DNA from: an uncultured Planctomycetota bacterium
Lineage (GTDB): Bacteria; Planctomycetota; Planctomycetia; Gemmatales; Gemmataceae
NCBI GenBank assembly: GCA_963849325.1
Contig: CAWKHF010000005.1
Location: 320,001-384,000, forward strand
Reading direction: 5' to 3'
DNA: 64,000 bases
Shown: positions 2,442 to 39,343 of the stretch, piece after piece
How positions within the stretch are numbered: position 1 is the stretch's first letter
How the letters are laid out: each line of letters opens with the position of its first letter
The notes under the pieces: generated by a model
What the model saw: only the letters and a program-made list of their open reading frames with translations
Databases searched by the model: none
Told to the model about the DNA's origin: nothing
Program-made: the position numbers and the translations under genes

Positions 2442-3431
2442 ATGCCGGCGGTGCTGGGATTGGACATTGGCGGCGCCAACCTTAAGGCCGCGCACAGCGC
2501 CGGCCACGCGCTGAGCATACCGTTCGCCCTGTGGAAAGAGCCGGCCCTGTTGCCGCACGCGCTGCGCAAACTCCTGTGGACGATGCCCGCGACGGACGTG
2601 CTGGCCGTGACCATGACCGGCGAGCTGTGCGATTGCTTCGAGAGCAAGCGGCAGGGCGTCCACGCCATCCTCGACGCCGTGGCGGAGGCGGCCGGGACAA
2701 CTCCGGTGCGCGTGTGGCGCAACGACGGCCGTTTCGTGGACATCGCCGCGGCGCGGGAGTCGGCCCTGCAAGTGGCGGCGGCGAACTGGCTGGCCCTGGC
2801 GACCTTCGCGGGACGCTACGCGCCGAAGGGGCCGGCCTTGCTCATCGACATCGGCTCGACGACCACTGACATCGTGCCGTTGCGCAACGGACGGCCCACC
2901 CCGCGGAGGCGCACCGATCCGGAGCGCCTCCGCTGTTGGGAGTTGACGTACACGGGCGTTCGCCGAACGCCTTTGTGCGCCCTGCTCGGCGGCGATGGCG
3001 CGGCGGAATTCTTCGCCACGACGCTGGACGTGTACCTGCTTCTCGATTTTCTTCCCGAAGATCCGGCGGATAACAACACGGCGGATGGACGGCCGGCGAC
3101 GAAGGCCGCCGCCGAGGCGCGGATCGCGCGCATGCTCTGCGCCGACCTCGAAACCAGCACGGCCGAGCAGCGCCGTCGCCTCGCGGAACTCGTCATGGAC
3201 AATCAGGCGCTGCTTCTGGGCCTCGCCTTCAACCGCGTGGCGGGCCGCTTGCTCGCGCCGCCGCAAACCGTCCTGTTCGTCGGCGAAGGCGAGTTCCTTA
3301 TCAAAGCCGCCCTCGAACGCCAACAGGACATTCCGCCCTGCCGAGTCGTGTCCTTCCGCAGCGCGTTGGGTCCGGCCATCTCGCGGGCCGCCTGCGCCTA
3401 CGCCGTGGCGATGCTGGCGGCAGAGGAATGA
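2442..3431 (+). CDS. mfnF: Hydantoinase/oxoprolinase-family H4MPT-linked C1 protein, MfnF-like (methanofuran biosynthesis)
   Basis: GLDIGGANLK, TMTGELCDCF, AAANWLA, IDIGSTTTDI, ELTYTGVRRTP, TADGRP; adjacent to an MfnE-like kinase. Confidence 0.8.
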   Translation: MPAVLGLDIGGANLKAAHSAGHALSIPFALWKEPALLPHALRKLLWTMPATDVLAVTMTGELCDCFESKRQGVHAILDAVAEAAGTTPVRVWRNDGRFVDIAAARESALQVAAANWLALATFAGRYAPKGPALLIDIGSTTTDIVPLRNGRPTPRRRTDPERLRCWELTYTGVRRTPLCALLGGDGAAEFFATTLDVYLLLDFLPEDPADNNTADGRPATKAAAEARIARMLCADLETSTAEQRRRLAELVMDNQALLLGLAFNRVAGRLLAPPQTVLFVGEGEFLIKAALERQQDIPPCRVVSFRSALGPAISRAACAYAVAMLAAEE

Positions 3432-3435
3432 CCCG

Positions 3436-4071
3436 ATGGCTCCGTCTCCCCTCGCCGCCGTCGTCAAGGTCGGCGGCAGTCTGTTCGAGCTGCCCGATCT
3501 GGCGACGCGCTTGCGCGACTGGCTCGCGGCGGAGGGGAACAGCGGGACCGGCGTGCTCCTCATCCCCGGCGGCGGCCGCACGGCCGACGTCGTGCGCGAA
3601 CTCGATCGCCGTCACGGACTCGGCGAGGAGTCGTCGCACTGGCTCGCCCTTCGCGCCCTGTCGCTCAACGCTCATTTCCTGGCCGCGCTGCTGCCGTCGG
3701 CGTGCGTGGTCGAGGACGCGAGCGCTTGCAAGCAAGCCTGGAATAAAGGCATTATACCGATCCTCGAAGGTTATGAATTCGCGCGCGGCGATGAGGGCCG
3801 TGCCGGCTGTCTGCCGCACTGCTGGGCCGTCACCAGCGACGCCCTGGCCGCTCGCGTCGCCCTGGTCGTCCGTGCTCGTTCTCTCGTCCTGCTCAAGTCC
3901 ACGTCGATCCCGGCCGGTGTGGATTGGAGGGAGGCGGGACGGAGAGGGTTGGTCGATGACGTGTTCGCCGAGGTTCTGCGGCAGGCGCCGGCGGACTTGC
4001 GCGTACGCGCCGTCAACCTGCGGACGTGGGGAGCCCGAACCAGCGAGTTGTTCTCCGAGCCTGAAGCGTAA
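3436..4071 (+). CDS. mfnE: Amino-acid-kinase-family protein, MfnE-like
   Basis: VVKVGGSL, IPGGG.TADVVR, SHWLAL, LPHCWAVTSDALA, LVLLKS; operonic with mfnF. Confidence 0.75.
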   Translation: MAPSPLAAVVKVGGSLFELPDLATRLRDWLAAEGNSGTGVLLIPGGGRTADVVRELDRRHGLGEESSHWLALRALSLNAHFLAALLPSACVVEDASACKQAWNKGIIPILEGYEFARGDEGRAGCLPHCWAVTSDALAARVALVVRARSLVLLKSTSIPAGVDWREAGRRGLVDDVFAEVLRQAPADLRVRAVNLRTWGARTSELFSEPEA

Positions 4072-4135: not shown

Positions 4136-7129
4136 CTAGGAGCCTGGATGTCGGGCGTGCGGTGGCGTGGGCGTCGGCGTCGGTGTGGGCGTCGGTGTCG
4201 GGGTTGGAGTAGGTGTCGGCGTTGGCGTTGGTATCGGTGTGGGAGTGGGCGTCGGTGTTGGAGTGGGAGTGGGCGTCGGCGAGCCGGGATGTCTGGCGTG
4301 CGGCGGCGGCGTGGGCGTAGGAGTGGGCGTCGGTGTCGGAGTCGGAGTGGGCGTCGGTGTCGGAGTAGGAGTTGGTGTCGGAGTCGGTGTGGGCGTCGGA
4401 GTCGGAGTGGGCGTTGGGGTCGGTGTCGGAGTGGGCGTCGGTGTTGGGGTTGGCGTCGGCGTGCTCGTGGCTCCGGAGATGTTGGGGTCGGTGGCGCTGC
4501 CGCCGACTCCCGCCATCCCGTCCGAGCCGAGGATCCCTTCGCTGGCCGCTTGCCCATCGCTGCCGGCTTTTCCGGCACCGCCCACATTGCCGTTCGGCTC
4601 TCCGGGTCCCGCCGGTCCTCCCGCGCCCGCTTGGCCGCCGTGTCCCCCCGGTGCGGGAGTACCCAGGGCGGCGACGGCGCCTCCCTTGCCTCCCTGGCTG
4701 GCGGAGACCGTATTGTTGGCTACCGTGGTGCTGGACAGGCCGGCGACAAGGCCATTGGCGAGATAGAGTCCGCCGCCCTGGGCGGCTCCGCCAGTGCCGC
4801 CGTCGCCGCCGTTGCCATGAACCCCGGCTTGGCCGCCATCGCCGCCGTTGCCGCCCGAGCCGCCCTGGCCGCCGTTGCCGCCCGTTCTCAAATGGTAGCT
4901 GGTATTGCCGGCGCCGCCGCCGCCTCCTGTACCGCCTTTGCCGCCGTGGGCGCCGGCGCCTCCCATGCCGTCGACATAAGCGTTGCCATAAAGATCGGAA
5001 GTGCCGGCGTGCCCTCCCGCGCCGCCGTTGCCGCCCGTTGCCGAATTCTGTTCGACGCTGGAAGCGGTCAGATGGAGAGAGCCTCCACTCTGATACAGAC
5101 CGCCGCCCTGAGCGAGACCGCCACTGCCGCCGTTGGCGGCGTTTTCGCCATTGCCGCCATTGCCGCCGTTGCCGCCGTTGCCGCCGTCACCACCGTTGCC
5201 GCCGTCGCCGCCGATGCCGCTCTGACCCGAGTGCTCGAAGCCAGCTCCTCCCTGTCCTCCACCGACGCCGGCGCCGCCGTAGGCTCCGTAGCTCGAACCC
5301 GCGGCCGGTCCTCCACCGCCCGTGCCGCCGTAGCCCGCAAACCCGCCGTTCCTTCCGATTCCTCCATAGACGGCATTGAACGAGATTGTCGATTGCTGAA
5401 TGGTGACCGTGCTGGAAACGAGGTAAGCCCCTCCGCCTTCGGCCGTGCCTCCATTGCCTCCATCTTCCGGTTTGCCGCCCTCGCCGCCATCCCCGCCGTC
5501 TCCGCCATTTCCCGCTTTACCAGCCTTGCCGCCAATGCCACCATCACTCCCCACCCCGCCAGGGCCGCCAGGGCCGCCATGGCCGCCAGGACCACCTGCG
5601 GCCCCGAAACCTCCCGCTCCTCCTCCTCCTCCGAAACCTCCTCCGCCTGCCGCGGCGACATTTCCCGCCGTACCGCCGAGGGTGGACGATTGCAGCAGCA
5701 GGTTTGCGTTGCTGACGAACAATCCTCCTCCCTGAGCGGAACCGCCGTCGCCGGCCTTGCCGCCATCTCCGGCGTTGCCGCCGTCGCCGCCGTCGCCGCC
5801 CTGGCCGCCGCTGCCGCCGTCGCCGCCCTTCTTCCCCGGACTGAAATAGAGGGCGGGTTCTCCGATGTGGGTCGCACCATGTCCTCCTCCGCCGCCATTG
5901 CCGCCGGCGCCGCCCTGGCCCCCAAAATTGCCGCCTCCTCCACCCGCGCCGGCGCCGCCGCCGCCGCCGTAGCCCGAGGAGGCGCTGTTCCCTTCGATCG
6001 TCGAATTGTTCTGGATGGTGAGGGTGCCCTGACTGAGGTAGATGCCTCCGCCCTGGGCGTCGCCGCCATCGCCGCCATCGCCGCCATCGCCGCCATCGCC
6101 GCCGTCGCCGCCTTTGCCGCCCTCCTCTCCCGGCCGGCCATTCGATCCGGATACCCCTGTCTGGCCAGCTTGGCCGTCCTCACCAGGGGCGTTGTCGCCG
6201 CCTCGTCCGCCTCGGCCGCCATACATGCCACCGCCGCCGTAGCCGCCCTCACCGCCCTCGGCTTCGTTGTCCGAGATGGTACTTTGGATGAGGGTGAGGC
6301 TGCCGTTCTGGACATAAATGCCTCCGCCGGCGGCATCGCCGCCCTTGCCGGCATCGCCGCCCTTGCCGCCCTTGCCGCCGTCTCCTCCCTCCGTCCCCTT
6401 GCCGCCGTAGGTGAAATTGCGGTTCGTGGTATGCTCCACCGCTCCGCCGCCGCTGCCGCCCGCGCCGCCCGCGCCGCCCCAGCCGCCTTTGCCGCCATAA
6501 GCCTGGTTGTTCGACACCGTGCTTCCCTGGAGAACGAGCGTTCCGCCGCTGAGGAAGATGCCGCCGCCCTGACCGTCGCCTCCGGATAAACCATTCAAAC
6601 CGTTCTGCCCACTGCCGCCGGCGGCGCCGGCGACGGTTGCCGCTTGGCCGTTGGCTCCATTCCCTCCGTTGGCTCCGGCCGATCCCTGGGCAAAGCCCTG
6701 GGAAATGATCACATCGTCCAGCGTGACGTTGGCGCCCGCGCCGACATCGAGAATGCGAAACTTCGGCGTTCCCGCCGTGGTGCCGCGCTCGATGGTGGCG
6801 CCGTGGCCCTGGATGGTCAGGTTGGACGAGGTGATGACCGGCAGACCGTTGGCGCCGTCGGTGGTATTGTTCACCGTCGTCAGCTGGTAGGTGCCGTTGG
6901 TGGCCAGGACGATGGTGTCGGCCTGACCGTCTCCGTTGGCCGTTTGGATGGCGCTCGCCAGCCCGGCGACATCGCCGTTGCCGAGGGTGAACGTCGTCGG
7001 CGTCGTGCGGTCCTCGAGCGTTTCGAGCATGGGCCGAATGGAGCGACGCCGTTTCGCCGACCCGGCGCGGGTGTAGGGAGAAATGCCGTGCTTACCGAAC
7101 CATCGCTGCCGCAATTGCGTGAGCCACAT
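4136..7129 (-). CDS. Gly-rich secreted protein A (997 aa): LEDR leader, beta-solenoid coils with GGx tracts, PT linker, HARHPGS tail
   Basis: Start MWLTQ with GGAG SD, matching paralogs B and [16 protein letters not shown]; repeated GGG(I/L)(Y/F)..G.LT...ST...N.A units; ends (PT)[10 protein letters not shown](PT)[10 protein letters not shown]. Confidence 0.85.
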
Positions 7130-7139
7130 CGTTGGGATA

Positions 7140-7305
7140 CTCCGCGGGTAAGGAGGCGTGCCGGCCGCCTGCGGGATGGTATTGCCGGCGTCGATGTTTG
7201 CCGTAATCCGTCCGCTGAATCGACGTTGAAGACGACGGGAGCGAGGCGATTTCCCAGTCGTTCCAAGCCGGATCGCGCAATTTCTTCCGGGATGGCAGGG
7301 GCCAC
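7140..7305 (-). pseudogene. Degenerate 5' remnant of a protein D paralog
   Basis: [21 protein letters not shown] / [12 protein letters not shown] aligns with [22 protein letters not shown]...[17 protein letters not shown] similarity extends into the promoter. Confidence 0.75.
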
Positions 7306-7343
7306 CCTGTTGGGTAGGAGAATTCATGGCGACTTAGCGGGCC

Positions 7344-7372
7344 AGCCTAAAATGTCTAATTCGCCCTGTCAA
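7344..7372 (-). promoter_or_regulatory. Sigma70-like promoter for gene A
   Basis: TTGACA-N17-TAGGCT on minus strand, homologous to the promoter at 19176-19204. Confidence 0.7.
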
Positions 7373-7440
7373 GCAACCTGAAGAAGAATTAATTTTGGCG
7401 GGATGTCTCGTCCTGGACTCGCTGGCGCAAGACCGTCTCT

Positions 7441-7498
7441 CGGAGCCTGAAGCATAAGCGAAGGAATGTGCTGTCCTTCGCTTACGCTTCAGGCTCCG
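7441..7498. repeat. REP-like palindrome family 2
   Basis: Near-identical to 4054-4108, in the same position relative to the 3' end of paralog B. Confidence 0.85.
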
Positions 7499-7519
7499 TA
7501 AGTGGATCCCTGATTGGAA

Positions 7520-10500
7520 CTAGCCGCCTGGATGTCGGGCATGAGGCGGCGTGGGCGGCGGTGTTGGAGTCGGCGTGGGCGTCGGTGTTGGCGTGGGCGT
7601 TGGAGTCGGGGTTGGTGTCGGCGTGGGAGTGGGCGTCGGTGTCGGAGTGGGCGTGGGCGTGGGCGTCGGTGTCGGCGTGGGCGTCGGCGAGCCGGGATGT
7701 CGGGCGTGCGGCGGAGTCGGCGTGGGCGTCGGCGTAGGCGTTGGAGTGGGCGTGGGCGTCGGAGTGGGTATTGGTGTAGGTGTCGGGGTTGGAGTAGGCG
7801 TCGGTGTCGGCGTGGGCGTCGGCGTTGGAGTCGGTGTCGGCGTCGGCGTGGGTGTTGGAGTCGGTGTGGGCGTTGGTGTCGGCGTGGGCGTCGAGGTCGT
7901 GGCCCCGTAGATGTCGGGGGACGTGCCGCTCCCGTGTACGCCCGGCGTCCCGGCCGAGCTGGTGGAGCCTTCGCTGGCTTGCTGCCCATCGCTGCCCGTT
8001 TTTCCTGGACCGCCCGGGCTGCCGTTGTAGACACCGCCCCCTGCCGGTCCTCCGGCGCCCGGCTGGCCTCCATGCGCCGCCGCGAGGAGGAGGAGCCAGG
8101 GCGGAGACGATGCCGCCCGAGCCGCCCTTGCTGTCGGAGACGGTATTGTTGGCCACCGTGGTATTGGAGAGGCCGGCAACCAGTCCGTCGGCGAGATAGA
8201 GACCGCCGCCCTGGGCGGCACCGCCGGTACCTCCATCACCGCCCTTGCCCTGAGCACCACCCTGGCCGCCGTCGCCGCCGTTGCCGCCCGAACCAGCCTG
8301 GCCGCCGTTGCCGCCCGTCCTGCCGTAGCCGCCTCGTCCACCGTTGCCGCCGCTGCCGCCCAGGCGCCGGCCCCTCCGCCTCCGCCAAAAACGTAGGCAT
8401 TCCCTCCATCGGTGGCGTTCCCTCCCGGGCCGCCGTTGCCGCCCTGGGCCGAATTTTGCTCGACGGTGGAAGCGGTCAAGTTGAGGGAACCCCCACTCTG
8501 GTATAACCCGCCGCCCAGGGCCACTCCGCCACTGCCTCCCATGCCGGCATTTTGCCCACTACCGCCCTTGCCGCCGTTGCCTCCATTGCCGCCGTCCCGC
8601 AGGCGGCCACGCCCCCTTGCCCGCCTCGATAGCTGCCCGCATATCCGCCATTGCCTCCCCCTCCACCGACGCCTCCAATGGCTCCCAGAGGCGCCGTCCG
8701 AGGAGGCCTGGGCCTGACCGCCCCTGCCTCCATAGCCGGCGGCCCCACCGCCCCCACCCGCCCCGCTATTGGCCTCATTGAACGAGAGGATCGATTGTTC
8801 AATGGTGACGGTGCTGGAAACCAGATAAGCTCCTCCGCCTTCGGCGTCGCCTCCATTGCCGCCATCTTCCGGCTTGCCTCCATCGCCTCCATCTCCACCA
8901 TCCCCGCCATCTCCGCCTTTGCCCCCTTTGCCCCCGAAGCCGCCAATCGTCCCCGCTCCCCCATTGCCGCCTGTTCGCCCTGCTCCGCCTGCACCGCCCT
9001 GGCTACCCGAATCCACCGACACCCCCTCCGCCCGCATATCCGCCTCTGCCTCCCTGGGCCATGTTTCCTTCGTAGGCGGTATCCGCCAATGCGTGGAAGA
9101 CTCCAGAAGAAAGCGATCCGTTGGTGACGAATAAGCCGCCTCCCTGAGCGGCGCCCGCATCGCCGGCCTTTCCGCCATCTCCTGCCTTTCCTCCCGCGCC
9201 GCCCTCTCCACCATTGCCGCCACTGCCGCCATCGCCGCCCTTCTTTCCCGGACTGACCCACCAGTAAGGCGGGATTCCCAGCATTCGGGTTGGTTGCGCC
9301 ATTTCCTCCTCCCCCTCCATCACCCCCAGCCCCGCCATTGCCGCCCGGGCCGCCGAAGTCGCCGCCTGCACCACCTCCACCGCCGCCGCCATAGCCGGAG
9401 TAGGCGGTATTCCCTTCGATAGTCGAATGGTCCTGGATGAGGAGTGTGCCCTGATGGAGGTAGATGCCTCCCCCTGTGCGTCGCCGCCGTCGGCACCGTT
9501 GCCGCCATCTCCGCCATCCCCGGCGTCGCCGCCCTTGCCTCCTTCTTCACCGGGCCGACCATTCGCTCCGGATACTCCGGTCGCACCATTCATGCCGCTT
9601 TCGCCGCGAGCGCCATCGCCCCCTCGTCCTCCCACGCCGCCAATGCCCCCTGGGCCGCCATAGCCGCCGTCTCCGCCCTCCGCTTGGTTGCCGTTGATCG
9701 TGCTTTGGATAAGGGTGAGGCTTCCGTTTTGAACATAGATGCCACCGCCGGCCGCGTCGCCGCCCTTGCCGGCATCGCCTCCCCGGCCTCCGTTGCCGCC
9801 GGCTCCTCCCTCGGTCCCATTACCGCCGTAGAAGCCGAAGTTGCTGGTATGATAAGCAGCCCCGCCTCCCCTGCCGCCGTTGCCTCCGGCTCCGCCGCCG
9901 CCGCCGATGCCGCCGAGGGCCATATTGAATTCCAGCGTCGCTCCCTGGAGAACGAGCGTTCCGCCGCTGAGGAAAATGCCACCGCCCTGACCATCGCCGC
10001 CGTCCGACCCGTTCTTGCCGTCGCTGCCGTTTCCGCCAGCACCGCCGGGAGCGGTCGCTGCCTGACCGTCGGCGCCGATGGCTCCGTTGGCTCCCGCCGA
10101 TCCTTTGGCTAGACCGTGGGAGATGATTACGTCCTCCAGCGTGACGTTGGCGCCGGCGCCGACATCGAGGATGCGAAACGCCGGCGTCCCCGCCGTGGTG
10201 CCGCGCTCGAGGGTGGCGCCGTTGCCCTGGATGGTCAGGTTGGACGACGTGATGACCGGCAGACCGTTGGCGCCGTCGGTGGTATTGTTCACCGTCGTCA
10301 GCTGGTAGGTGCCGTTGGTGGCCAGGACGATAGTGTCGGCCTGGCCGTCTCCGTTGGCCGTTTGGATGGCGCTGGCCAGCCCGGCGACATCGCCGTTGCC
10401 GAGGGTGAACGTCGTCGGCGTCGTGCGGTCCTCAAGCGCTTCGAGCATGGGACGAACGGAGCGACGCCGTTTGGCTGCCCCGATGCGGGTGTGCGGAGAA

Positions 10501-10550
10501 ACGCTGTGCTTGCCAAACCATCGCTGTCGCAATTGCGTGAGCCACATCAT
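7520..10550 (-). CDS. Gly-rich secreted protein B (paralog of A; several frameshifts, assembly error or pseudogene)
   Basis: [13 protein letters not shown]...LEALEDR; collinear with A across ORF fragments; ends PPHARHPGG*. Confidence 0.75.
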
Positions 10551-10818
10551 TGGGAACTCCCGGACAACGGTATGATCGATGCTCGTTCTCTCCTCATCCC
10601 AATCCCTCTCCCCCGAAACGGGAGAGAGGAATTGGGGAACAGACCCTCCCTGTGAAGAAGTACGAGCCGGTAAGCCTGATTCTTACGGCAAAAAAGACAG
10701 CCTGCAACATTTTTTTTGGATTTTCCGAACTGCGAGCGCGGGCGTGCGAGAAGCGGCCCGCGAGCGGATGTGCTCGCGGGCCGGCTGGCGACATTCGCCG
10801 AGCGAAGAGGACGTCCCT

Positions 10819-13799
<2,981 letters not shown>

Positions 13800-13854
13800 G
13801 GGAGGACTCCGGGTCGAAGGGTTAGATCCGTTCACCTATCGCAACGGATTCTCG

Positions 13855-13922
13855 CCCTGAGCGGGGGCGTCAACCCCCTGAGAATGGCGGCACTCAGGGG
13901 GCTGACGCCCCCCCGCTCAGGG
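13855..13922. repeat. REP-like palindrome family 1
   Basis: CCCTGAGCGGGGGCGTCAACCCCCTGAG...CTCAGGGGGCTGACGCCCCCCCGCTCAGGG. Confidence 0.8.
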
Positions 13923-14007
13923 TGCGAAACCACGGCTAACCCAAAGTACGAAGCGAAAGAATGGAACCTGTCGCGCGACGGGAATTTTTTTCCGAACTGC
14001 GTCGCGG

Positions 14008-16173
14008 CTAAACGAGGGCCGCGAACAAGGCGCCCAGGTGGGGTTCGTAATTCCGCCAGCGTCCGGCCGAGCGCGTGTACAGCGGTTGACGTACCTGCAT
14101 GACGCTGGCGGTGCGCACCGGCTGCTTGCCCTCGTGGAAAGCCAGGCAGGCCGGCTCCCACTCCAGGCCGCACCACGCCACCAACCGCCGCGCCACGCTC
14201 TCCAGGTCGGCCACCGTCTCCTCGTAATCGATCTCCAGCAGCGAAACCGGCAACACCGTCCGCCAATGCGCCATCAAGCGCTGATATTCTCGGAAGCGCG
14301 CGGCGATGTGCTTGGGATCGTTGGCCCAGCGAATGCTGCGGAAGTTGGTCATCCAGCACGACACGGCCACGTCGCGCAGGTCGCGGCGGCAGTGGATGAA
14401 CTTCGCTCGGGGAAACAGCAAGGACAGCAGGCCAAGGTACAGATAGTTGTCTGGCATCTTGTCCACGACGCGCGCGGCGGTGGGATTCAGGCTGCGCAGT
14501 TGGCCCAAATGCTTCTGCGCCAGGCGGCGGGCCGCGTCGCGCTGGAGTCCCGGCAGCGCCTCGAAGGCGCTTGCTTCCGTTGCGTCCGCTCCCAGGGCCA
14601 GGAAATCCTCGCGGGCCTGGCGCAGCTCGCCGGCGCCGAAGACCTGCGAATGACCGGCGAGAATTTGCTCGGTCAACGTCGTGCCCGAGCGCGGCAAACC
14701 GACGATGAACACCGGCCGCTCCGTCTCCAGGCCGAAGCCGCGCACGCGCTCGAAGAACGCTGGCGTGAAGACGGTCATCATGTTGTCGATAAAACGAGTA
14801 AATTCATCGGGATCGTAGCTCTGTTTATTCTCGACGCGCAGCGCCAGCTCCAGGGCGTTGGCCTGTTGCAGATGGGCGGCGGCCTGTTCGTAGTTGCCGT
14901 CGGCGTCGCACACCTGGGCCAGGCCGAAGAGCAGACCGGCGCGGCCGGCGTCGTTCAGCTCCGGCTCGGCCAGGCGCTGCTCGATGACCGTGCGGTCGGC
15001 GGCCGGCAGCTTGCCGCGCAGCAGCGTCGCCAACTGCGACAGGGCGGCGGCGTGGCGCGGATAGTCGCGCAGCACCTCTCGATACGCCTGCTCCGAAGCC
15101 GCGAAGTCGCCCAGTTCCTGAAGCACCAGGCCGAGGTTGCAGCGCGCGGCCGGGAAGTCCGGCTGCAAACGCAGTGCGGTCTGATAGCGCTCCAGCGCCT
15201 CGGTGAAATAGCCTTGTTCGTGCCGGACCCAGCCGAGGCGATTGTGCGCCGCCGCGTAATCGGCATCGAGCCGCAAGGCCAGCTCGTAGCGAACGAGGGC
15301 TTCTTCGTAGTTCTCTTGCTCCTCGAAGACGCTGGCCAGGTAGCAGTGCAGGCGCGGCGAGTTCGGCTCCAGTTGCAGCGCCTGTTCGTACCACGAGACG
15401 GCCTCCGACAGTTTGCCTTCCTCTTGCAAGGCCTGGCCCATGTTGCCGTAGGCCAGGGCCAGGTCGGGATTGAGGTGCATGGCCTCGGCGTAGCAGGCGC
15501 GGGCCTCGGCCAACTGACCGCGCTCGCGCAGCACGTTGCCGAGGTTGTTGTGCGCCTCGGCGGTGTTCGGCCGCAGGCGAACGGCTTCACGGCAATGGTG
15601 CAGGGCGTCGTCCAGCTCTTGTTGTTCCAGCAGGATTTGTCCGAGATTGCTGTGAGCGGCCGCGAAGTTGGGATCGCACTGCACGGCCTGGCGAAAGTGC
15701 GCGATGGCCTGTTGGCGATCGCCGAGAAGACGGTAGGTGTCGCCCAGGTTGTTATGGGCCTCGGCGAAGTTGGGCTTGAGGCGCAGGGCGGCCTGAAACT
15801 GAGCGATGGCGGCCTCGCCCTTGTCCTGGTCGCGCAGGGCCAGGCCGAGATTGATGTGGGCTTCGGCGAGGCTGGGTTGCAACCGTAGGGCGGTGCGGCC
15901 GCAGCCGACGGCTCGGTCCAACTCGCCCAGGGCGCGGTACGCCTCGGCCAGGTTACTGTGAAAGGCGGCGGCGCCGGGCTTGTGGGCGATGGCCTGGCCG
16001 ATCAACTCCACGGCCGCCGCATGGTCGCCCTGCTGATGACGCAGCACGCCCAGCAAGTGCAGGGCATCGGCGTTCCGCGGTTCCTGGGCCAACAGTTTCT
16101 GATAGAGCTGAGCGGCCTCTCTCAGCTGTCCCGATTGATGCTTTTCGATGGCGGCCGTCAACGTGTCTTGCAT
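14008..16173 (-). CDS. TPR-repeat sulfotransferase (Sulfotransfer_3-like), 721 aa
   Basis: Start MQDTL with AAGGA SD; about a dozen TPRs (AEAHNNLG...); PAPS motif PVFIVGLPRSGTTLTEQIL, DKMPDNY, FPRAKFIHCRRD, VRTAS.MQVRQPLY. Confidence 0.92.
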   Translation of the reverse strand: MQDTLTAAIEKHQSGQLREAAQLYQKLLAQEPRNADALHLLGVLRHQQGDHAAAVELIGQAIAHKPGAAAFHSNLAEAYRALGELDRAVGCGRTALRLQPSLAEAHINLGLALRDQDKGEAAIAQFQAALRLKPNFAEAHNNLGDTYRLLGDRQQAIAHFRQAVQCDPNFAAAHSNLGQILLEQQELDDALHHCREAVRLRPNTAEAHNNLGNVLRERGQLAEARACYAEAMHLNPDLALAYGNMGQALQEEGKLSEAVSWYEQALQLEPNSPRLHCYLASVFEEQENYEEALVRYELALRLDADYAAAHNRLGWVRHEQGYFTEALERYQTALRLQPDFPAARCNLGLVLQELGDFAASEQAYREVLRDYPRHAAALSQLATLLRGKLPAADRTVIEQRLAEPELNDAGRAGLLFGLAQVCDADGNYEQAAAHLQQANALELALRVENKQSYDPDEFTRFIDNMMTVFTPAFFERVRGFGLETERPVFIVGLPRSGTTLTEQILAGHSQVFGAGELRQAREDFLALGADATEASAFEALPGLQRDAARRLAQKHLGQLRSLNPTAARVVDKMPDNYLYLGLLSLLFPRAKFIHCRRDLRDVAVSCWMTNFRSIRWANDPKHIAARFREYQRLMAHWRTVLPVSLLEIDYEETVADLESVARRLVAWCGLEWEPACLAFHEGKQPVRTASVMQVRQPLYTRSAGRWRNYEPHLGALFAALV

Positions 16174-16222
16174 GGGCGAAAAATCCTTTCCGTTGCGTCG
16201 TCGAGCCAAGAGGGAAGACCGT

Positions 16223-19132
16223 CTAGGAGCCTGGATGTCTGGCGTGCGGCGGCGTCGGTGTCGGGTTCGGTGTAGGCGTCGGGTTCGGTGTGGGCGTCGG
16301 GTTTGGTGTGGGCGTCGGGTTTGGCGAGCCGGGATGTCGGTTGTGCGGCGGCGTCGGCGTGGGATTTGGAGTCGGCGTCGGCGTTGGTGTCGGCGTTGGT
16401 GTCGGCGTCGGCGTCGGCGTTGGTGTCGGCGTCGGCGTCGGCGTGACGTTGACAGTGAAGGCGCCAGGGTGCCGGTGGCGGTCGCGTTGCCGGCCAGGTC
16501 GGTCGGCGGATTGGAGACGAGGTTGATCGTGTAGGTGCCGGTCGGCGCATTGTCCCAGGAGCCGCCGGGCGGCGTGATCTGATAGGTGACGGTGATGGTT
16601 TGGGCGTCGCCCTGTCCGTCCTGCGCTCCCGACAGCACGGTGTTGATCGCCGTGGCGGTGATGGGTGAACCGCTGGGCGGCTGCACCTGGACGACAGCGC
16701 CGCTGATGCTGCCGCCGTTGACCATCACGGGATCGGAATAAGCGACCGTGAAGGTATATGGATTTAAGGTATCCTCGTTGGCGTTGGTGACGTTGGCGGC
16801 GTTGAGGTTGGCCGTGGGCGGCGTGGTGTCCGAGCCAACGGCCCCGAAGACCGTGTCGCCGGCGCTGGTGCCGTCCGACGCCGGGCCGGCCCTCAAGCCC
16901 GAACTGCCCAAAGCGCCGTCGTTGCCCTCCGCGCCGTCTTTGCCGTCGGCACCTTCGGGATCGCCGGGGCCGCCCTGGCCTGCTAATCCTCCGTTGCCGG
17001 CGTCGCCGCCCGCGCCGCCCGCGCCAGCGCGCCGACACTGCCTGCCTTGCCCCCTTGTGCGGTGCCGCTCAAGGTAGTGCCGTTCAGAGAGGCGGAAAAT
17101 CCGTTGGCGACGTAGATGTCTCCACCTTGACCGTCGCCGCCGTTGCCAGCGTGGCCGGCGTTGCCGCCGTTACCGCCCGGCCCCCCGGAGCCGCCGTCGC
17201 CCCCGTTGCCGCCATGCCCGCCAGCGGCGATGTGGGCGCCGTTGGGTCCGTAGACACCGCCGCCGCCGCCGTAGCCGCCGAGGTTGCCACCGCCACCCTT
17301 GCCACCCTCGCCGCCTGGACCGGCCGCGCCGCCGTTGCCGCCGTTGGAGCCGAGCGCGGAATCCTTGGCGAAATCACCGCGGACGATAGTGAGGCTGCCA
17401 CCGGCCTGGTAAATGCCGCCGCCCAGGCCATCGCCGCCTTTGCCGCCATCGCCGGGGTCGCCGCCGTCGCCGCCCTTACCGCCTTGTGCTCCGTTGCCGG
17501 CGTCGCCGCCCGCGCCGGCGTCGCCACCCTTGCCGGCCGAGTTGACGTAGCCGTCACCACCGTTGCCGCCGATTCCGCCGTAGCCGCCAGCGCCACCTTG
17601 GCCGCCCGCGCCACCTTGGCCGCCCGCGCCACCTTGGCCGCCAGCGCCGCCCGTGATTCCCTGACCGCCCATTGCGGTGTTGGAAGTGAACGTCGTGGCG
17701 ATAAGGGTAGCCGTGCCGTCCTCCAGGTAAAATCCGCCGCCCTTGGCGTCGCCGCCGTCGCCACCGTCGCCACCCTTGCCGCCATCGCCGCCGTCGCCGC
17801 CGTCGCCGCCCTCACCCCCGTTGCCGGCGTCGCCGCCCACACCCGCGGCGATGCCGGGGATGCCGATGGCGCCGCCGCCGGGGCCGCCGTTGCCGGCGTT
17901 GAAAGCACCGCCTCCATCGCCGCCGTCGCCGCCATCATCGCCACTAATGCCCGCCCCACCGTCACCAGCCGTCGCCGCGTTGCTCGTGACGGCGGTGGAC
18001 ACAACCGTCAACTTTCCGGAGGCCAAGTACAGTCCTCCGCCCTCCGCGTCTCCGCCGTTGCCGCCCTTGCCGCCATCGCCGCCGCCCACGGCATCGCCGC
18101 CTTTGCCGCCCGCGCCGCCCATTCCTCCTTTGCCACCCGCGCCGCCTTTGTAGCCTGCGGGGCTGGACGCAATTCCTAAGGTTCCGCCACCCGCGCCGCC
18201 GGCGCCGCCCGAGCCGCCCGCGCCCCCCGCGAATCCGCGGTCCTGGGACACCAACACACCGGAGGCGCTCGAGAGGTGGTGGCCGGGTCCGCCGCCGTCG
18301 CCACCCGCGCCCCCCGGGCCGCGTTGTTCAGGACGGTCGTGTTGATAAGGGTCAATTGCCCGGACGCTACATAGATGCCGCCGCCTTTGGCGTCGCCGCC
18401 ATCGCCGCCATCGCCGCCAGCACCGTTCTTCAGCGAAGCCGCCTGGGGACCGTCCTGGCCGTCCCCGCCATCGCCGCCATCCCCTCCCTCTCCTCCGGGA
18501 GCCGTGGCATCTTTGCCTACGGCTCCCTTCTGTCCCGTCAGGTGCGCGCTCGGGGTGGGAGCATAATGGGTAAGTTGATTGCCCCCCGCCCCTCCTGCCC
18601 CCCCTTTACCGCCGCTAACGCTGTTGCCACGGACGGTGACGTTGGTCAGGGTCAGACTTCCCGAAGCCAGGTAAATGCCGCCGCCCTCGGCCTCGCCGCC
18701 CTTACCGCCGGCGCCGCCGTTTTGACCGCTCACCCCCGCCGCGCCGGCCGACCCCGTGGCTCCCACCACGTTGCCGCCCGTGATGGTTAGGTTCTGAATC
18801 CGTACCGTCAGATTGCTGTTGCCGATGATCTCGAAGATGCGATTGGTCGCCTTCGATCCGCCGGTGAGGATGGTGGTGTTCTCGGCCGCGCCGACGAGGC
18901 TGAGCGTGCGGGCCGTGTCGGGCTGGTCCTGAATCAACAGTTCCACGCCGGCGCTGAGCGTATAAGTGCCGGCCGCGAGGTTGATGGTATTGCTGGCGTC
19001 GCTGTTGCCGTCGGCCGCCTGGATGGCGGACTGCAAACCGCTCGCCGAGTTGACGTCGAAGATCGCGGGAGCGAGACGATCTTCCAGTTGTTCCAGACGC
19101 AGGAAGACGCGCGATTTCTCCCGAGATGACAT
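16223..19132 (-). CDS. Gly-rich secreted protein D with C-terminal Ig-like domain, PT linker and HARHPGS tail (frameshifted)
   Basis: [12 protein letters not shown] leader; GGGIY/GGx repeats; DTTPPTA...FTVAYSD...TYTINL..TDLAGN domain; ends PPHNRHPGS-(PNPTPT)[10 protein letters not shown]. Confidence 0.75.
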
Positions 19133-19175
19133 GCGGCCACCGCATTGTGGGTGAGAATGGGATATTTAGCGGATC

Positions 19176-19204
19176 ACTGTAAAACTCATAATTCGGTCTG
19201 TCAA
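19176..19204 (-). promoter_or_regulatory. Sigma70-like promoter for gene D and the sulfotransferase
   Basis: TTGACA-N17-TACAGT with an AT-rich tract upstream. Confidence 0.75.
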
Positions 19205-19250
19205 GTACCTAACGAATTATTAATTTTTTGTGGGAGGCACTACCCAAATA

Positions 19251-19316
19251 GGCGAGCGGGGGGCGTAAGCCCCCTATTGACGGCGACAAACAGAGGGCTT
19301 ACGCCCCCCGCTCGCC
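19251..19316. repeat. REP-like palindrome family 1
   Basis: GGCGAGCGGGGGGCGTAAGCCC...GGGCTTACGCCCCCCGCTCGCC. Confidence 0.8.
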
Positions 19317-19446
19317 AAAAAGTTACCGCTTCTGAAGAGCAGATTGGATGCCAAAACAAGAGCCTCACACAAATTCGCAAAGAACGCCAGGAATTGAAAA
19401 AAAAGACGGGATGAAAGGATCGTAGGATCGTGTCACCGTAAAACCA

Positions 19447-19493
19447 ATCTCCCGTTTGGCATCGGCTGGGCGAGCCGGCACCAAACGGGAGAT
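19447..19493 (-). terminator. Probable intrinsic terminator of gene E
   Basis: ATCTCCCGTTTGG...CCAAACGGGAGAT stem ~20 bp after the stop, followed by TGGTTTT on the minus strand. Confidence 0.55.
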
Positions 19494-19514
19494 GTGGGGG
19501 GACACCACTTATGG

Positions 19515-22500
19515 TTACAGGGCCGCTATAAACGACTGATAGGCGTGCAACTCGGTGGCGAAGAACTGGAAGTTGGCACTCAACATACTATTGGCGGCGA
19601 AAAGGGCGTCCGCCATCGCCTGATTGGCCTGGTTCTGTTCCAACTGCACCAGTTGCGTCAGTAGGCTGCCGACAGACTGGAGGAGATCCTGCTGTACGGC
19701 CACATTCAGAGACTGATAATCTTGCAGCGCGTCCATGACGGCGACGAGATTGCCAGTCAACAAGCCTTGCGTCAACGAGACGAGGGTCTGAAACTCCTGC
19801 TGAATCAGTTGCGGGAGGGTCGGTGTCGGGGTCGGAGTGGGCGTTGGTGTCGGCGTCGGCGTCGGCGTTGGCGTCGGCGTCGGGGTGGGCGTGGGGACAG
19901 GCGTGGGACTGATGATGATGTTGGCGGTGACCAGACTGTCGCTGGGTCCGCCGGGGGTCGGCAGGGTCAGAACGGCGTTGGTGCCGGCGGCGTTTTTGAT
20001 CGTGGCGCCGTTGAGGGCCAGCGGCACCAACGGAGTGTAGTCCAGCGCCTGGCCGAACGAGGTGTCGCCGGGCTTGACCGTGTAGGTGAAGATCAAGGTG
20101 TTGCTGCCGCTGCCGCTGCTGTAGTTGGCCATCTGGCCATTGGCCAAGGCCAGCGTCGGTGTGCCCGCGCCTGCGACAAAGACCTTCTCGCTGAAGGTCA
20201 CGTCGATGACGATCGTGTCCCCTGGCCCGTAGGTGCCCGAGGCGGTGGTCGTGCCCACGCCGGTCACGGCCGGCGTGGTGGCGTCGATGATGATGCCGGT
20301 GGTCTTGAGCGTATCGCTGGCCGCGCCGGGGGCCGGCAGCGACGCGAGGTTGGCCGCCATGCCGCCAGCGTTCGCGATCATGCCGCTCAGCCCGCCGGCG
20401 GTGTAGTCGAGGTTGGCGCCGTTGGTGGTGTCGCCAGCCTGCGTCGTGTAGGTGAAGACCAGCGTATTGGTGCCGGTGCCACTGAGGTAGCTGGCCGTCT
20501 TGCCGTCGCTGAGCGTCAAGGTCGGCACGCCGGTGACATTGACGTTCTCGCTGAAGGCCACGTCGATGGTGACCGTCGCCCAGTCCCGAGTGCCGGCGGC
20601 GGTGGTCGTGCTCACGCCCATCACCGTTGGCGTGGTGGCGTCGATGATGATACCCTTCGGTTCCAAACGTATCGCTGCCCGAACCGGGCATCGGCAGCGT
20701 CAGAGTAGCCGCCGTGCCGGCCGCGCTCTTGATCGTGCCGCCGCTCAGCGAATTGATCGCCGCATAGTCGATATTGGCGCCGGAGGTGGTGTCGCCGGAC
20801 GGCACCGCGTAGGTGAAGGTCAGCGTGTTGGTACCGCTGCCGCTGCTGTAGTTGGCCGTGCCGCCGTCGCTCAGCGCCAGCGTCGGCGTGCCGGTGACGG
20901 TGACGTTCTCGCTGAACGTGACCGTGATGGCGATCGGCGCCCCCGTTCCGAGGGTGCCGGCGGCGGTGGTCGTGCTCACGCCCGTCACCGTCGGCGTGGT
21001 GGCGTCGATGATGATGTTGTCGTCCTGGCTCAGCGAATTCGCCGCGCCGGCGCACGGCAGCGTCAGAGTGGCTGCCACGCCGCCCACATTCTTGATCGTG
21101 CCGTTCAGCGCCGTGGCCGACGCCTCATCGAGATTGGCGCCGTTGGTGGTGTCGCCATTGGCCACCGTGTAGTTGAACACCAGCGTGTTCGTGCCAGTGC
21201 CGCTGACGTAGGTGGCCGTTTTGCCGTTGCTCAGGGTCAGGGTCGGCGTCCCGGTGACATTGACCGCCTCGCTGAAGACCACATCGACGGCGATCGTGGA
21301 CCCGCCCGCATAGGCGCCGTCGACGGTAGTCGAGTTGACCTTGGTCACCGTCGGCGTGGTGGCGTCGATGATGATGCCGGTGGTCTTGAGCGTATCGCTG
21401 GCCGCGCCGGGGGTCGGCAGCGACGCGAGGTTGGCCGCCACGCCGCCGGCGTTCGCGATGGTGCCGCCACTGAGACTCAGCCCGCCCGCGCTGTAGTCGA
21501 GGGCGGCGCCGCTGGTGGTGTCGCCGCCGGCAACCGTGTAGGTGAAGGTCAGGGTCTGGCCGCCGCTGCCGCTGGTGTAGCTGGCCCTGCTGCCGTCGCT
21601 GAGCGTCAAGGTCGGCGTGCCGGTGACATTGACGTTCTCGCTGAAGGTGACGGTGATGGCAACCGGCTGAGTGGGACCGTAAGTGCCGGCGGCGGTGGTC
21701 GTGCTCACACCCGTCACCGTCGGCGTGGTGGCGTCGATGACGATGCCCGTGGTGCCAAACGTATCGCTGCCCGAACCGGGCGTCGGCAGGCTCGCCAAGG
21801 TCGAGGGCATTGTCCGCCGAGTCGAAGATCGAGCCGCCGTTGAGGCTCAGCCCGCCCGCGCGGTAATCGAGGTTGGCGCCGTTAGTGGTGTCGCCGCTGC
21901 CCACCGTGTAGGTGAAGACCAGCGTGCTCGTGCCGCTGCCACTGGAATAGTTGGCCTTTTGGCCGTCGCTCAACGTCAGATAGGGTGTGCCGCCGGTGGT
22001 ATCGACCGTGACCGGCTTGCTGAGGTTCAGGTCGATCGTAACCTGGCCGGTCCCGAGGGCGCCGGCGGAGTTGGTCGTGGAAACCGTCGTGATGGTCGGG
22101 CGACGCCGTCGATCGTGATGTTGTCCGTGTAGAGAATATCGTTGGCCGAGGCCGGTCCCGGTAAGGACGACGCCGGCAGGGTGAGGTTGGCCGCCAAACC
22201 GTCCGAGACATCGTTGATGGTGCCGCTGTTGAGGACGAGCGCGCCGGTGCCCGTGTAGTCGAGCGGGCTTTGCTCCTTTATTCCCCGAAATGGCAATGTG
22301 GTGAAGCCAGGCAGCTTCCCAATTTTGCTATCTTGCCAGTTTCAGGAATAAAGGAGCAAAGCCAGTCGAGCGGAGTGGCGGTGTCGCCGGCGGGCACGAC
22401 GAGGTTGAATTGCAGAGCACTGGTGCCGCTGCCGCCGACGTAGGCGGCCTTCTGAGTCAGGCTATCGTTGAGGGCCAGCTGAAGGTCGCATTGCCTCCCG

Positions 22501-23044
22501 CCGTCACCGTCTGGTTGCTCGGTTGCGTCGTGATGGCCGGTACGTTGCCGTCAACCGTGATGTTGTCGGCGGCGAGATAGTCAAAATTGGCCGTGGCGGG
22601 AGTCTGTAAGGTGAGGGTGGCCGCGGCCGCGTCGGAACGATCGTTGATGCTGCCCCCGGATAAGCTGAGCGCGGTGGTGTCGAGGTAATCGAGCGGACTG
22701 GCGCTATCCGGAGTGGGGACGATAAACGTGAATTGCAGCGAGCTGGTGCCGCTGCCTCCGCTGTACTGGGCCAGCGTGGTTGCGCTATGGTTCAGCGCCA
22801 GAGTCGGCGTGCCGGTGACGGTGACCGCCTGGCTGAAGTCCACGTTGATGGTGGCCGTCTGCCCAGCGTTGAGGGTGCTGTTGGGGGTCAGCGTCGTGGT
22901 CACGTCCGTCACGGTGGCGTTGAGCAGCGTGCGGTCCTCTAGGACTTCGACGTAGAGCATGCCGCGTCGGGGATCTCTCACGACGCGCGTCCGTCGAGCC
23001 TTCGAGACCTGTTTTAACCACGTCCATATCGGCGACCGAAACAT
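19515..23044 (-). pseudogene. Ig-like repeat surface protein E, disrupted by a MITE, an internal deletion and frameshifts
   Basis: VEVLEDRTLL leader; tandem repeats TPTVTGV...VTFSENV.VTGTPTL.LSDG..A.YSSGSGT.TL.FTYTV..GDT...LDY; PT linker then helical tail. Confidence 0.75.
22266..22363. mobile_element. 98-bp MITE with 19-bp TIRs and 9-bp target duplication (IS5/IS903-like ends)
   Basis: GGCTTTGCTCCTTTATTCC ... GGAATAAAGGAGCAAAGCC flanked by AGTCGAGCG at 22257-22265 and 22364-22372; removal restores ATPLDYTGT. Confidence 0.9.
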
Positions 23045-23242
23045 GCGGGAGCACTCCATAGTCAAAGGGAATGAATGTTGGCGGGGACGCACATCGTTGT
23101 GTTGTCGCCGGTACGAGGGCGGCGGGTGGGAGAGAAAGGTATCGCAGGGGCGAACCGACCTCGCCGACCCATGCCCTCCGCCGGCCGTGCAAGGCGGGAA
23201 GGTTGCGGGACAGTCCGAACCGGCCACGCGGTTAAGGTGCTG

Positions 23243-23271
23243 AATCTTGCGCCGAAGCCGGCACTTGTCAA
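23243..23271 (-). promoter_or_regulatory. Possible sigma70-like promoter for gene E
   Basis: TTGACA-N17-AAGATT on minus strand. Confidence 0.5.
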
Positions 23272-23398
23272 GCGGCCTCGGCGAACGAGAAGATAAATGG
23301 GCAAGTGACGGTGCCGAAAAGGACGGCGGTGCGGCCAGCAACGGCTTCACGAAGGGATTCCGGGATGTGCCCTACGGAGATTCGCGCAGCGAAAGATA

Positions 23399-23455
23399 CC
23401 GAGCCGCGACCGTTAGAGAGCGGGGGAGCACCACTCCCTAACGGTCGCGGCTCGG
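23399..23455. repeat. REP-like palindrome (CCGAGCCGCGACCGTTAG...)
   Basis: 18-bp perfect arms extending imperfectly, ~25 bp after the stop of gene F. Confidence 0.75.
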
Positions 23456-23479
23456 ACAGCGGCTTGCGCTACGCGGGAC

Positions 23480-37903: not shown

Positions 37904-38283
37904 TTTCGCCAATCATCATACATTGCGAAATCGCAAGAATACTTCCTGTCTTAAATTAACATTCGTTAATATTTCTTTCCGCTCTCTCATCTTCTCCCGC
38001 TTGCCGTTAATATATTTTGATCCGCAAGTCTCGTATATCATTGGACTTGAGAAAGCTGAAGAAGAAGTAACGGAACTTCTTGTCCGATTTCGCGCCGATT
38101 TCGATGGAATATATAGGGGGCGTTCTGCCTCCTGAATCCCTCACAGGTAAAAACGACTGCTCTTCGAGCCGTCAGTGGGAGCGTGCCGCGTTCCAGCGTG
38201 CGCATCCTCGCGGCTGGAACGCGCAAATTTTTATCTGTGCGGGGATCTCCAAATGGTCCTGCCCATCGCCCGAGGAGATCCGC

Positions 38284-38889
38284 ATGAACGCGCAACAAGG
38301 CGGGCCATTCAGCGATGACGAAGACCTGCATCGCGACGATACACGAATGGTCCGGGACGACAATACCTTTCCTGGCCTGGCCGAGCATATCCGGCGGTGT
38401 CTGCACGAAGTCGGGTTGACGCCGGAGCAAGTGGAGAGGGTAACGCAGCAGGTATGGCTGGCGCTCCTGGAGAACAGGCACCTCTTTGAGGGAGAGCACG
38501 CGGAGCAACAACTGCACGCCTGGGTTGATCGCGTCGCCCACGGCAAAGCAATGGACGAACATCGCCGGGCACGACGCGAGCGGCGACTGTTTCGCGCCCT
38601 GGATGCCTTGCGGGCGGAGCCGAAAGATCGGCGAGAGGATGCGGCCGAACAGGCGGAAGTCACGCAGCACTGGTGCGAATGGTTGCGCGAAGGGATGGAG
38701 GAGATGCGCGTCCAGCATCCGCTCAATTATCGCTTGTTGTACGGCCACTACATGGAGGGGCGTAGGGCCAAGGATCTGGCGAAGGAGGAGGGTTTGAGTG
38801 TGAACGCGGTGTACCAGCGTCTTCGCTGGGCGAGGGCGTGGCTCCGAAAGCGGATGACGGAAGGAGGCGATTATGGAAGCCTGCCTTAA
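38284..38889 (+). CDS. Divergent ECF-type sigma-70 factor
   Basis: GAGGAG SD; region 2-like VTQQVWLAL...LHAWVDRVAHGKAMDEHRR; region 4 HTH YMEGRRAKDLAKEEGLSVNAVYQRLRWAR. Confidence 0.7.
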   Translation: MNAQQGGPFSDDEDLHRDDTRMVRDDNTFPGLAEHIRRCLHEVGLTPEQVERVTQQVWLALLENRHLFEGEHAEQQLHAWVDRVAHGKAMDEHRRARRERRLFRALDALRAEPKDRREDAAEQAEVTQHWCEWLREGMEEMRVQHPLNYRLLYGHYMEGRRAKDLAKEEGLSVNAVYQRLRWARAWLRKRMTEGGDYGSLP

Positions 38890-39054
38890 TGCCGTCCCGG
38901 AATGTGAGGAAATAAATCTATTTTTTCATCACAGATTTTGGGGGGTCGAGCGATTACTATGGATAGAGGCAGAAAAAGGCGAATGCGGAGAGGAAGGCGA
39001 TCCTTGCGTCCGGTTCGGCGTGCGCCCGGAGGGTCGCCAAGGGAGGGACAATCC

Positions 39055-39321: not shown

Positions 39322-39343
39322 GGACTCACGCGGAGAACGTGTC

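Follow-up and report, generated by a model that had tools for sequence, protein, structure and literature searches.

To our knowledge, protein sulfation in bacteria is known essentially only from the RaxX/RaxST system of Xanthomonas, whose type I secretion transporter is the product of raxA and raxB. Tyrosylprotein sulfotransferases (TPSTs) are Golgi-lumenal membrane enzymes that modify acidic tyrosine sites, and in the TibC–TibA and Aah–AIDA-I pairs a cytoplasmic enzyme decorates an autotransporter adhesin before its export. RaxX is a 60-residue peptide precursor encoded in the cluster raxX-raxSTAB, where the gene for RaxST adjoins that of the exported protein which RaxST modifies (PMC6637879 and PMC4646787). 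Here we describe an array of six large genes and one tetratricopeptide repeat (TPR)-sulfotransferase gene in a 64,000-nucleotide stretch of DNA from an uncultured member of the Planctomycetota (contig CAWKHF010000005.1, positions 320,001 to 384,000, G+C ∼66%; the whole of this stretch is referred to as ‘the window’), together with the recurrent pairing of related sulfotransferase genes and genes for glycine-rich proteins that carry a particular N-terminal leader.

The array occupies positions 4136–32170 of the window on the minus strand, where the order of transcription is F, E, D, TPR-sulfotransferase, C, B and A. Starts were located for all six large genes (A at 7129, B at 10550, C at 13799, D at 19132, E at 23044 and F at 32170), each of which begins with a leader containing the motif LE.LEDR. 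A preliminary description of this DNA, made from the letters of the sequence, had read the locus as a surface-protein array of six co-oriented large genes accompanied by a single TPR-sulfotransferase. That layout is borne out by our analysis: the products are large, leader-bearing and apparently exported, and the locus appears to be a tandem array of planctomycete surface proteins with one such enzyme embedded in it.

The array resembles the RaxX–RaxST system in that a sulfotransferase is encoded beside an exported protein, a likeness that lies at the level of the genes (RaxST is compared here by its description). Unlike RaxX, the partners of the window type are predicted beta-helix proteins of 600–2200 residues; the enzyme has TPRs, and the array, made up of six large genes plus that of the enzyme, has no transporter gene (none of the array open reading frames (ORFs) scanned gave a transporter domain). 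Like TibC and TibA, the window locus places the gene of a predicted beta-helix surface protein beside that of a putative cytoplasmic modifying enzyme, and TibA is among the fold matches of the protein encoded by gene A (see below). The modification made by TibC is, however, heptosylation and not sulfation, and the window leader is not a Sec signal. No C-terminal translocator barrel or autotransporter domain was matched, in Pfam or NCBIfam, in the window ORF pieces scanned. The array therefore has the defining features of neither RaxX/RaxST nor TibC/TibA, as it displays no short precursor, transporter, translocator barrel or Sec signal.

We surveyed the neighbourhoods of homologous TPR-sulfotransferases using a sample centred on the enzyme, in which loci were picked by their sulfotransferase and the frequency of pairing is that seen from the enzyme side. 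A scan of genome contigs returned 452 confirmed relatives, with the closest relatives of the window enzyme found nearly all in metagenome-assembled genomes (MAGs) of Planctomycetota, and the best 80 of the 452 corresponded to 75 loci (1.36 Mb in total, from 40 MAGs). A criterion for glycine-rich genes (an ORF with at least three GGG[ILVFAM][YFW] motifs, with the reversed motif as control) identified 18 ORFs in 16 loci, and none with the control. A sulfotransferase gene is found no more than 2 kb away from 17 of the 18, and the remaining one is the tandem partner of one of these. The leader motif LE.LE.R was matched in 22 of the 75 loci, with 35 raw and 27 N-terminal matches versus 10 and 0, respectively, for the reversed motif, and a hidden Markov model (HMM) of the leader detected further leaders beyond these.

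When GGGxY motifs, the leader HMM and gene maps are combined, a protein with an LEDR leader is encoded beside the enzyme in 20 of the 75 loci, from 18 MAGs. The gene is upstream and co-oriented in nine cases (with its ORF ending ∼20–200 nucleotides before the sulfotransferase match), downstream and co-oriented in ten and convergent in two, one locus (L075) being counted twice, as downstream and as convergent. Most of the paired neighbours contain 13–34% glycine and GGGxY repeats; two (in L016 and L037) have one GGGxY each and another (in L063) has none. The pairs are distributed over Gemmataceae, Thermoguttaceae/Pirellulales and Planctomycetaceae, plus one bin labelled Alcaligenaceae. Across the 36 loci that lie outside a large clade of the sulfotransferase tree (considered further below), the glycine-rich class makes up 19 of 67 direct neighbours, versus 9 of 264 genes at ranks of 2 or more (Fisher p = 1.1e-8; L036 and L066, in which no sulfotransferase gene was called, were dropped from the gene-rank count). 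The adjacency to glycine-rich LEDR proteins that the preliminary description had anticipated among homologues is thus present, and the linkage is real and specific to proteins of this type.

The neighbouring proteins are mutually divergent, with identities of 30–55% over 80–430 residues (exceptions being the pair L021/L023 and short stretches of 60–79% identity, 89–165 residues in length, among L005, L065 and L007), and their C-terminal domains vary (DUF11, He_PIG, TIG, Laminin_G_3 and Big_3_5). No third conserved module gene was found in these loci, as the genes that flank the enzyme opposite its partner are unrelated to one another. No published account of this pairing was found in literature searches that extended neither to subscription journals nor to preprint supplements.

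The TPR-sulfotransferase gene (14008–16173, minus strand) is a single intact ORF that encodes 721 amino acids. Some 400 residues of TPRs are joined by a helical linker to the C-terminal domain, which belongs to PF13469 (Sulfotransfer_3) and has a PRSGTT loop. The match to that family covers profile positions 1–216 of 216 (E = 7.3e-42, 144.5 bits versus a cut-off of 27). No signal sequence is visible at the N-terminus. TPST1, TPST2 and a tick TPST share the Pfam family with the window enzyme, as well as the PRSGTT 5'-phosphosulfate loop, the glutamate of G-E, a lysine and RD...S, and give its best predicted-fold matches. They differ from it in having no TPR array and in that the sequence likeness is remote (E = 3.7e-5 to 5e-3, 18–21% identity). 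The closest solved sequences for the catalytic domain, all within that range of E values, are TPSTs and the sulfotransferase domains of CurM and OLS; the best of them is the tick TPST (8w5z, E = 3.7e-5), against which GLPRSGTTL, the glutamate of GAGE, the lysine of DKMP and CRRDLRD..S are aligned. The positions that bind 3'-phosphoadenosine 5'-phosphosulfate (PAPS) or take part in catalysis, whose roles we take to be those assigned to their counterparts in TPST2, are invariant in alignments of 15 and of 22 homologues, and the domain as a whole is 60–80% identical among close homologues.

An AlphaFold2 (AF2) model of the sulfotransferase domain was predicted with high confidence (pLDDT 90.9, pTM 0.90). 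In a Foldseek comparison its best matches are TPSTs (TM 0.59–0.63, E down to 3.5e-9), followed by CurM and OLS (TM 0.53–0.55) and, lower, by mycobacterial Stf; among the 14 matches listed at E ≤ 1e-6, 12 are TPST chains, the remaining two being the sulfotransferase domains of OLS and CurM. In both sequence and predicted fold, the catalytic domain is thus placed closest to tyrosylprotein sulfotransferases, which gives the enzyme the look of one that acts on proteins.

The leaders of the six large proteins carry [LMV]E.LEDR at 20–45 residues into a basic N-terminal region. In the five leaders that were measured (all except that of E), the first 45 residues include 5–15 arginines and lysines, the best 10-residue Kyte–Doolittle mean is at most 0.95, and no stretch without D, E, K, R, H, Q or N exceeds nine residues; the leader of E, by reading, is likewise without a hydrophobic stretch. 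A tryptophan is found near the N-terminus in five of the six, D being the exception. The leader had been described as Trp/Arg-rich, with LExLEDR and no hydrophobic Sec h-region, a description that holds for the motif, the basic character and the lack of an h-region and that fails, for D, on tryptophan. A search of the window in six frames with [LMVIFC]E.LE.R returned eight matches, seven of which are leaders, versus none for the reversed motif, and the leader motif is therefore beyond chance. The leaders of the window and of the 75 related loci together have a recognisable profile of their own. The seventh LE.LEDR protein of the window is encoded outside the array, at 42328–44481 on the plus strand (718 amino acids from stop to stop, 15% glycine, no GGGxY, no Pfam match), with no sulfotransferase gene alongside.

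The passengers, having no Sec-type hydrophobic core, may need a dedicated route, and the TPR protein might then serve mainly to hold the unfolded glycine-rich protein in the cytoplasm or to escort its export, with a sulfotransferase domain that is regulatory or acts elsewhere. Its ∼400 residues of TPRs and sub-threshold matches to TPR chaperone models (for example LcrH/SycD, 85 bits versus a cut-off of 104.8) are in keeping with such a role. These chaperone matches, however, correspond to generic TPR similarity, and the invariant PAPS-binding and catalytic positions, together with the conservation of the domain, argue for retained catalysis. We consider an escort function of this kind very improbable.

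Genes A–D encode glycine-rich proteins (19–39% glycine by ORF piece; 32% in A) with a rung repeat of A-Q-G-G-G-[ILV]-[YF], with long GGxGGx loops between successive rungs. Of 8000 candidates scored against the N-terminal 300 residues of A, 93 are related at E ≤ 1e-5; some of these go under the name ‘choice-of-anchor Q’ or ‘right-handed beta helix’, and others have the domains PF13229 and PF02415 (the latter in 3 of the 93). A 38-row alignment gives the repeat consensus GGGxY..G.L.L...T...N.A.GG.GG.GG, the first part of which (GGGxY...L.L...T...N.A) we take to resemble the GGA[ILV]/FxxN pattern of chlamydial Pmp proteins. Unlike Pmp and choice-of-anchor-Q proteins, A–D have, in addition, long GGxGGx loops between the rungs and a tail ([11 protein letters not shown]), and they matched no model in Pfam (E ≤ 0.01) or NCBIfam (E ≤ 0.1), including PF02415 and TIGR01376. 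An AF2 model of residues 1–560 of A (mean pLDDT 70.3, pTM 0.73) displays regular three-strand rungs of high pLDDT and low-confidence glycine loops. Its matches to Protein Data Bank structures in Foldseek are right-handed beta-helices only and are weak, with TM values of 0.14–0.23 among the beta-helix matches listed; one (AlgE4) is at E ≤ 0.001, and Rhombotarget A and the TibC-glycosylated TibA (4q1q, weak) are also present. A–D are probably right-handed beta-helices of the choice-of-anchor-Q or Pmp-like kind.

The anatomy of the locus, the family and fold of the enzyme and its recurrent linkage are observations; from them we infer a substrate, a type of acceptor and a time of modification. The reading that fits best is a two-gene module, spread across Planctomycetia, of a TPST-like enzyme and a neighbouring protein with an LEDR leader, in most cases glycine-rich with GGGxY repeats. 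The leader, which would comprise a tryptophan-containing helix, a basic spacer and LE.LEDR, does not look like a Sec signal. TPR arrays are typical binders of extended peptides, and the TPR arm of a cytoplasmic enzyme might capture the glycine-rich protein while it is still unfolded. The PAPS-type catalytic domain would then O-sulfate the captured protein in the cytoplasm, and the sulfated product would be exported by the LE.LEDR route, perhaps to act as an adhesin. That the LEDR neighbour is the substrate, O-sulfated on protein by the adjoining enzyme before export, is in our judgement an evenly balanced proposition. The broader claim, that Planctomycetia possess a dedicated protein-sulfation module made up of a cytoplasmic, TPR-armed, TPST-like enzyme and glycine-rich beta-helix proteins with a non-Sec LE.LEDR leader, is more doubtful, and we put it forward tentatively.

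A number of points weigh against protein sulfation by such a module. The sulfotransferase tree (95 domain rows) contains a clade of 54 rows (SH-aLRT support 97) from 39 loci in 10 MAGs, mostly in tandem arrays, that has no glycine-rich LEDR neighbours. The gene-rank count placed the glycine-rich class at 0 of 84 direct neighbours in this clade, and no recurrent partner was found among the 50 neighbours scanned of these 84 rank-1 ORFs (the other 34, the shortest ones and TPR fragments, were left out by eye), the context being heterogeneous. The remaining 41 rows of the tree include the window enzyme, and 17 of the 41 are flagged by a strict criterion; the three nearest relatives of the window enzyme (L001, L004 and L022), all from one MAG, are without a glycine-rich neighbour. 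Arrays of two to five tandem TPR-sulfotransferase paralogues are found in a few Planctomycetia MAGs (L038, L062, L012, L034, L041, L043, L044, L054, L068 and others). At L022:8494-13968, a close homologue of the enzyme lies between genes for a phage terminase large subunit and a phage portal protein.

The sulfotransferase family is also very broad. Of 8000 scored candidates, 7139 belong to it at E ≤ 1e-10, hundreds of which are 70–80% identical over the domain, and long fused forms with several sulfotransferase units are present in records named Bradyrhizobium, Acidisphaera and Acetobacteraceae. Proteins longer than 1262 amino acids that contain the sulfotransferase domain number 335 at E ≤ 1e-20, and a search for fusions showed no beta-helix, DUF11, Pmp or Planc_extracel domain in the domain lists, some of them shortened, of the 120 of these 335 that were listed. 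The family is wide and has multi-domain forms, and as a whole it is therefore not dedicated to glycine-rich LEDR proteins. The 120 long proteins P0214–P0333 measure 1263–3386 amino acids and have several sulfotransferase units; some are fused to glycosyltransferase (GT) domains of the GT9 (PF01075), GT41 (PF13844) or GT2/GT4 type or to a methyltransferase, and many are Bradyrhizobium-named. No described function for TPR-sulfotransferases was found in our literature searches.

The breadth of the family, which is both huge and taxonomically wide, would fit an enzyme that sulfates a non-protein acceptor (a glycan borne by these or by other surface molecules, a polysaccharide, a lipid or a small molecule), with the neighbouring proteins serving the same surface structure. 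Long forms of the family are fused to glycosyltransferase domains (PF00535, PF00534, PF13692, PF01075 and PF13844) and to a methyltransferase domain, and some neighbours within the 54-row clade are sugar enzymes (a Kdo transferase, UDP-glucose dehydrogenase, PMT_2 and a TPR-GT41 protein). The folds that rank next after the TPSTs are moreover those of CurM and OLS, sulfotransferase domains whose substrates are acyl intermediates; mycobacterial Stf ranks lower. In the 36 loci outside the clade, however, the sole recurrent neighbour is the glycine-rich LEDR protein, and no glycosyltransferase or polysaccharide-export gene was found in 56 scanned ORFs (54 from the set of 67 direct neighbours and two glycine-rich ORFs beyond a small ORF). 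The best fold matches are protein-tyrosine sulfotransferases, and TPR arrays usually bind peptides. A non-protein acceptor is, on balance, unlikely.

If, as we prefer, a protein is sulfated, neither of the acceptor sites proposed in the preliminary description finds support. Unlike the TPSTs, the window enzyme looks cytoplasmic, and no acidic tyrosine site is conserved in its neighbours. The tyrosine of the GGG(I/L)Y coils had been proposed as acceptor, a proposal that is weakened by the repeats themselves: the aromatic residue of GGGxY is tyrosine in 71–74% and phenylalanine in 25–29% of them, the residue at −1 is hydrophobic, in contrast to the acidic sites of TPSTs, and the acidic, Asp-rich positions at −7, −10 and −13 are confined to the window proteins and absent from homologous neighbours. 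A count of tyrosine contexts gave no clear pointer to a site. The proline-threonine (PT) tails had been put forward as a further target and as a feature common to all six genes. The motif PPH[ATN]RHPG[SG] is present at nine sites (window 4136–24700, minus strand), always after a PT run, and it is with this motif that A, B, C, D and F end, whereas E has a PT linker followed by ∼100 further residues. The uniform ending therefore holds for five of the six genes, and the motif may act, in this lineage, as a tag for sorting or processing. Neither PT runs (defined in the related loci as at least five units) nor PPHARHPGS were found in the 75 related loci, and the PT tail was rejected as a conserved sulfation target. 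The passengers also differ in type, since A–D are predicted glycine-rich GGGxY beta-helices, E has immunoglobulin (Ig)-like repeats and F has RHS/YD repeats. E and F have in common with A–D the leader and the tail alone, and proteins of the RHS type, or with Ig repeats only, are not seen again next to the enzyme in the related loci. The leader, finally, had been matched to the planctomycete-extracellular type. Planc_extracel (PF07595), which is treated as a signal-peptide model in PMC10952558, is likewise an N-terminal LE.LE.R-type motif of planctomycete proteins, but none of the six leaders reaches its cut-off of 25.5 bits: F alone matches, at 17.9 bits (E = 0.0024), with no match at E ≤ 10 for any of the others.

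Five of the six large genes are frame-broken as assembled; the co-oriented layout stands, and the only continuous ORFs in the array are A and the enzyme gene. To read through the others requires three frame changes in B (frames −3/−1/−3/−1 in a tblastn search with A), one in C, three in D, three or four in E and three in F, for a total of 13–14 within ∼28 kb. The array might then be a decaying set of pseudogenes in which A and the enzyme alone are functional and no system is at work here, a reading that gains from the fact that genes with strong Pfam matches at 38–64 kb of the window were found as single ORFs. Against decay, a non-repetitive housekeeping gene just outside the array, for 4-HFC-P synthase (MfnB-like; 32988–34189, minus strand), is itself split cleanly, its two frames covering positions 1–129 and 130–227 of the Pfam profile. 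The break in C, near 12830, appears in the alignment to A and B as one missing nucleotide next to a G run, and the sulfotransferase genes at L001:9968-11798 and L004:7634-11982 are split into overlapping ORFs in the same manner. Because of these three observations we read the breaks as probable indel errors of the sequencing consensus. All three frame changes in D are in the direction of one-nucleotide losses. The G+C phase at third codon positions (GC3) is coding-like through every gene piece, which also speaks against decay; taken alone, GC3 gave no separation of true from spurious ORFs in the glycine-rich genes. We regard decay of the array as a slight possibility.

Gene A (4136–7129, minus strand, as are all genes of the array) encodes the sole intact glycine-rich protein, with 997 amino acids from MWLTQ; it has two PT runs, each followed by PPHARHPGS. 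Genes B (7520–10550) and C (10819–13799) are paralogues of A; B has the same leader and tail and is part of a tandem paralogue unit of 3.25–3.43 kb. Gene D (16223–19132) combines its leader and predicted glycine-rich GGGxY beta-helix with an Ig-like segment and a PT/PNPT tail that contains PPHNRHPGS and then a terminal PPHARHPGS. In gene E (19515–23044), the leader is followed by at least six tandem repeats of ∼120 amino acids (a 360-nucleotide period) with an Ig-like look, then by the PT linker and its non-PT tail; a weak CopC-like match is all that Pfam returned, and NCBIfam gave nothing informative. Gene F (23480–32170) would encode ∼2900 amino acids if read through, with a leader, CARDB, PPC, DUF6531, an RHS/YD array (PF05593 RHS_repeat at E = 2.9e-86 in 14 stretches; TIGR01643 at E = 5e-71), DUF7619 and a PT run with the end HARHPGSS.

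The enzyme gene starts 49 nucleotides after the stop of D (16223–16225), in agreement with the preliminary description, which had placed the two genes ∼50 basepairs apart and apparently under one promoter. A search for sigma-70-like sites on the same strand between 13500 and 19600 returned only one, upstream of D (19204–19176; TTGACA-17-TACAGT, 10 of 12 positions, a consensus match only), and no terminator-like site was found between D and the enzyme gene. Given the 49-nucleotide spacer and a promoter-like site only upstream of D, the two genes are probably co-transcribed. A GC-rich palindrome of ∼68 nucleotides (13855–13922), read directly from the sequence, is located in the 205-nucleotide spacer between the enzyme gene and C, where it may mark the end of a transcript or a boundary.

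The 28 kb array is flanked by Hydantoinase_A-like and amino-acid-kinase-family genes (2442–4071) on one side and by the 4-HFC-P synthase gene on the other. These may be one-carbon genes of the methanofuran/tetrahydromethanopterin type, so that the array would look inserted in that neighbourhood. Beyond them, at 34215–36428 on the plus strand, a single ORF contains both a Ser/Thr protein kinase domain and a Tubulin_2 (tubulin-like) domain. A planctomycete origin is indicated by the Pfam content of the window, including DUF3568, Tad pilus genes, the 4-HFC-P synthase and this Pkinase plus Tubulin_2 ORF. The G+C content falls to 0.54–0.59 at 38000–42300, a region that includes two adjoining ORFs (39344–40777 and 40780–42279) with weak matches to SQHop_cyclase_C.

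If the neighbouring protein is indeed the substrate, bacteria would for the first time be seen to encode an enzyme for the sulfation of large structural surface proteins, and the finding would provide a function for part of a very large, uncharacterised family of TPR-sulfotransferases with thousands of members. Should the acceptor prove to be a glycan or a small molecule, the pairing would still mark a conserved surface-structure module. The pairing also gives a way into planctomycete surface chemistry and the unexplained LE.LEDR export leader.

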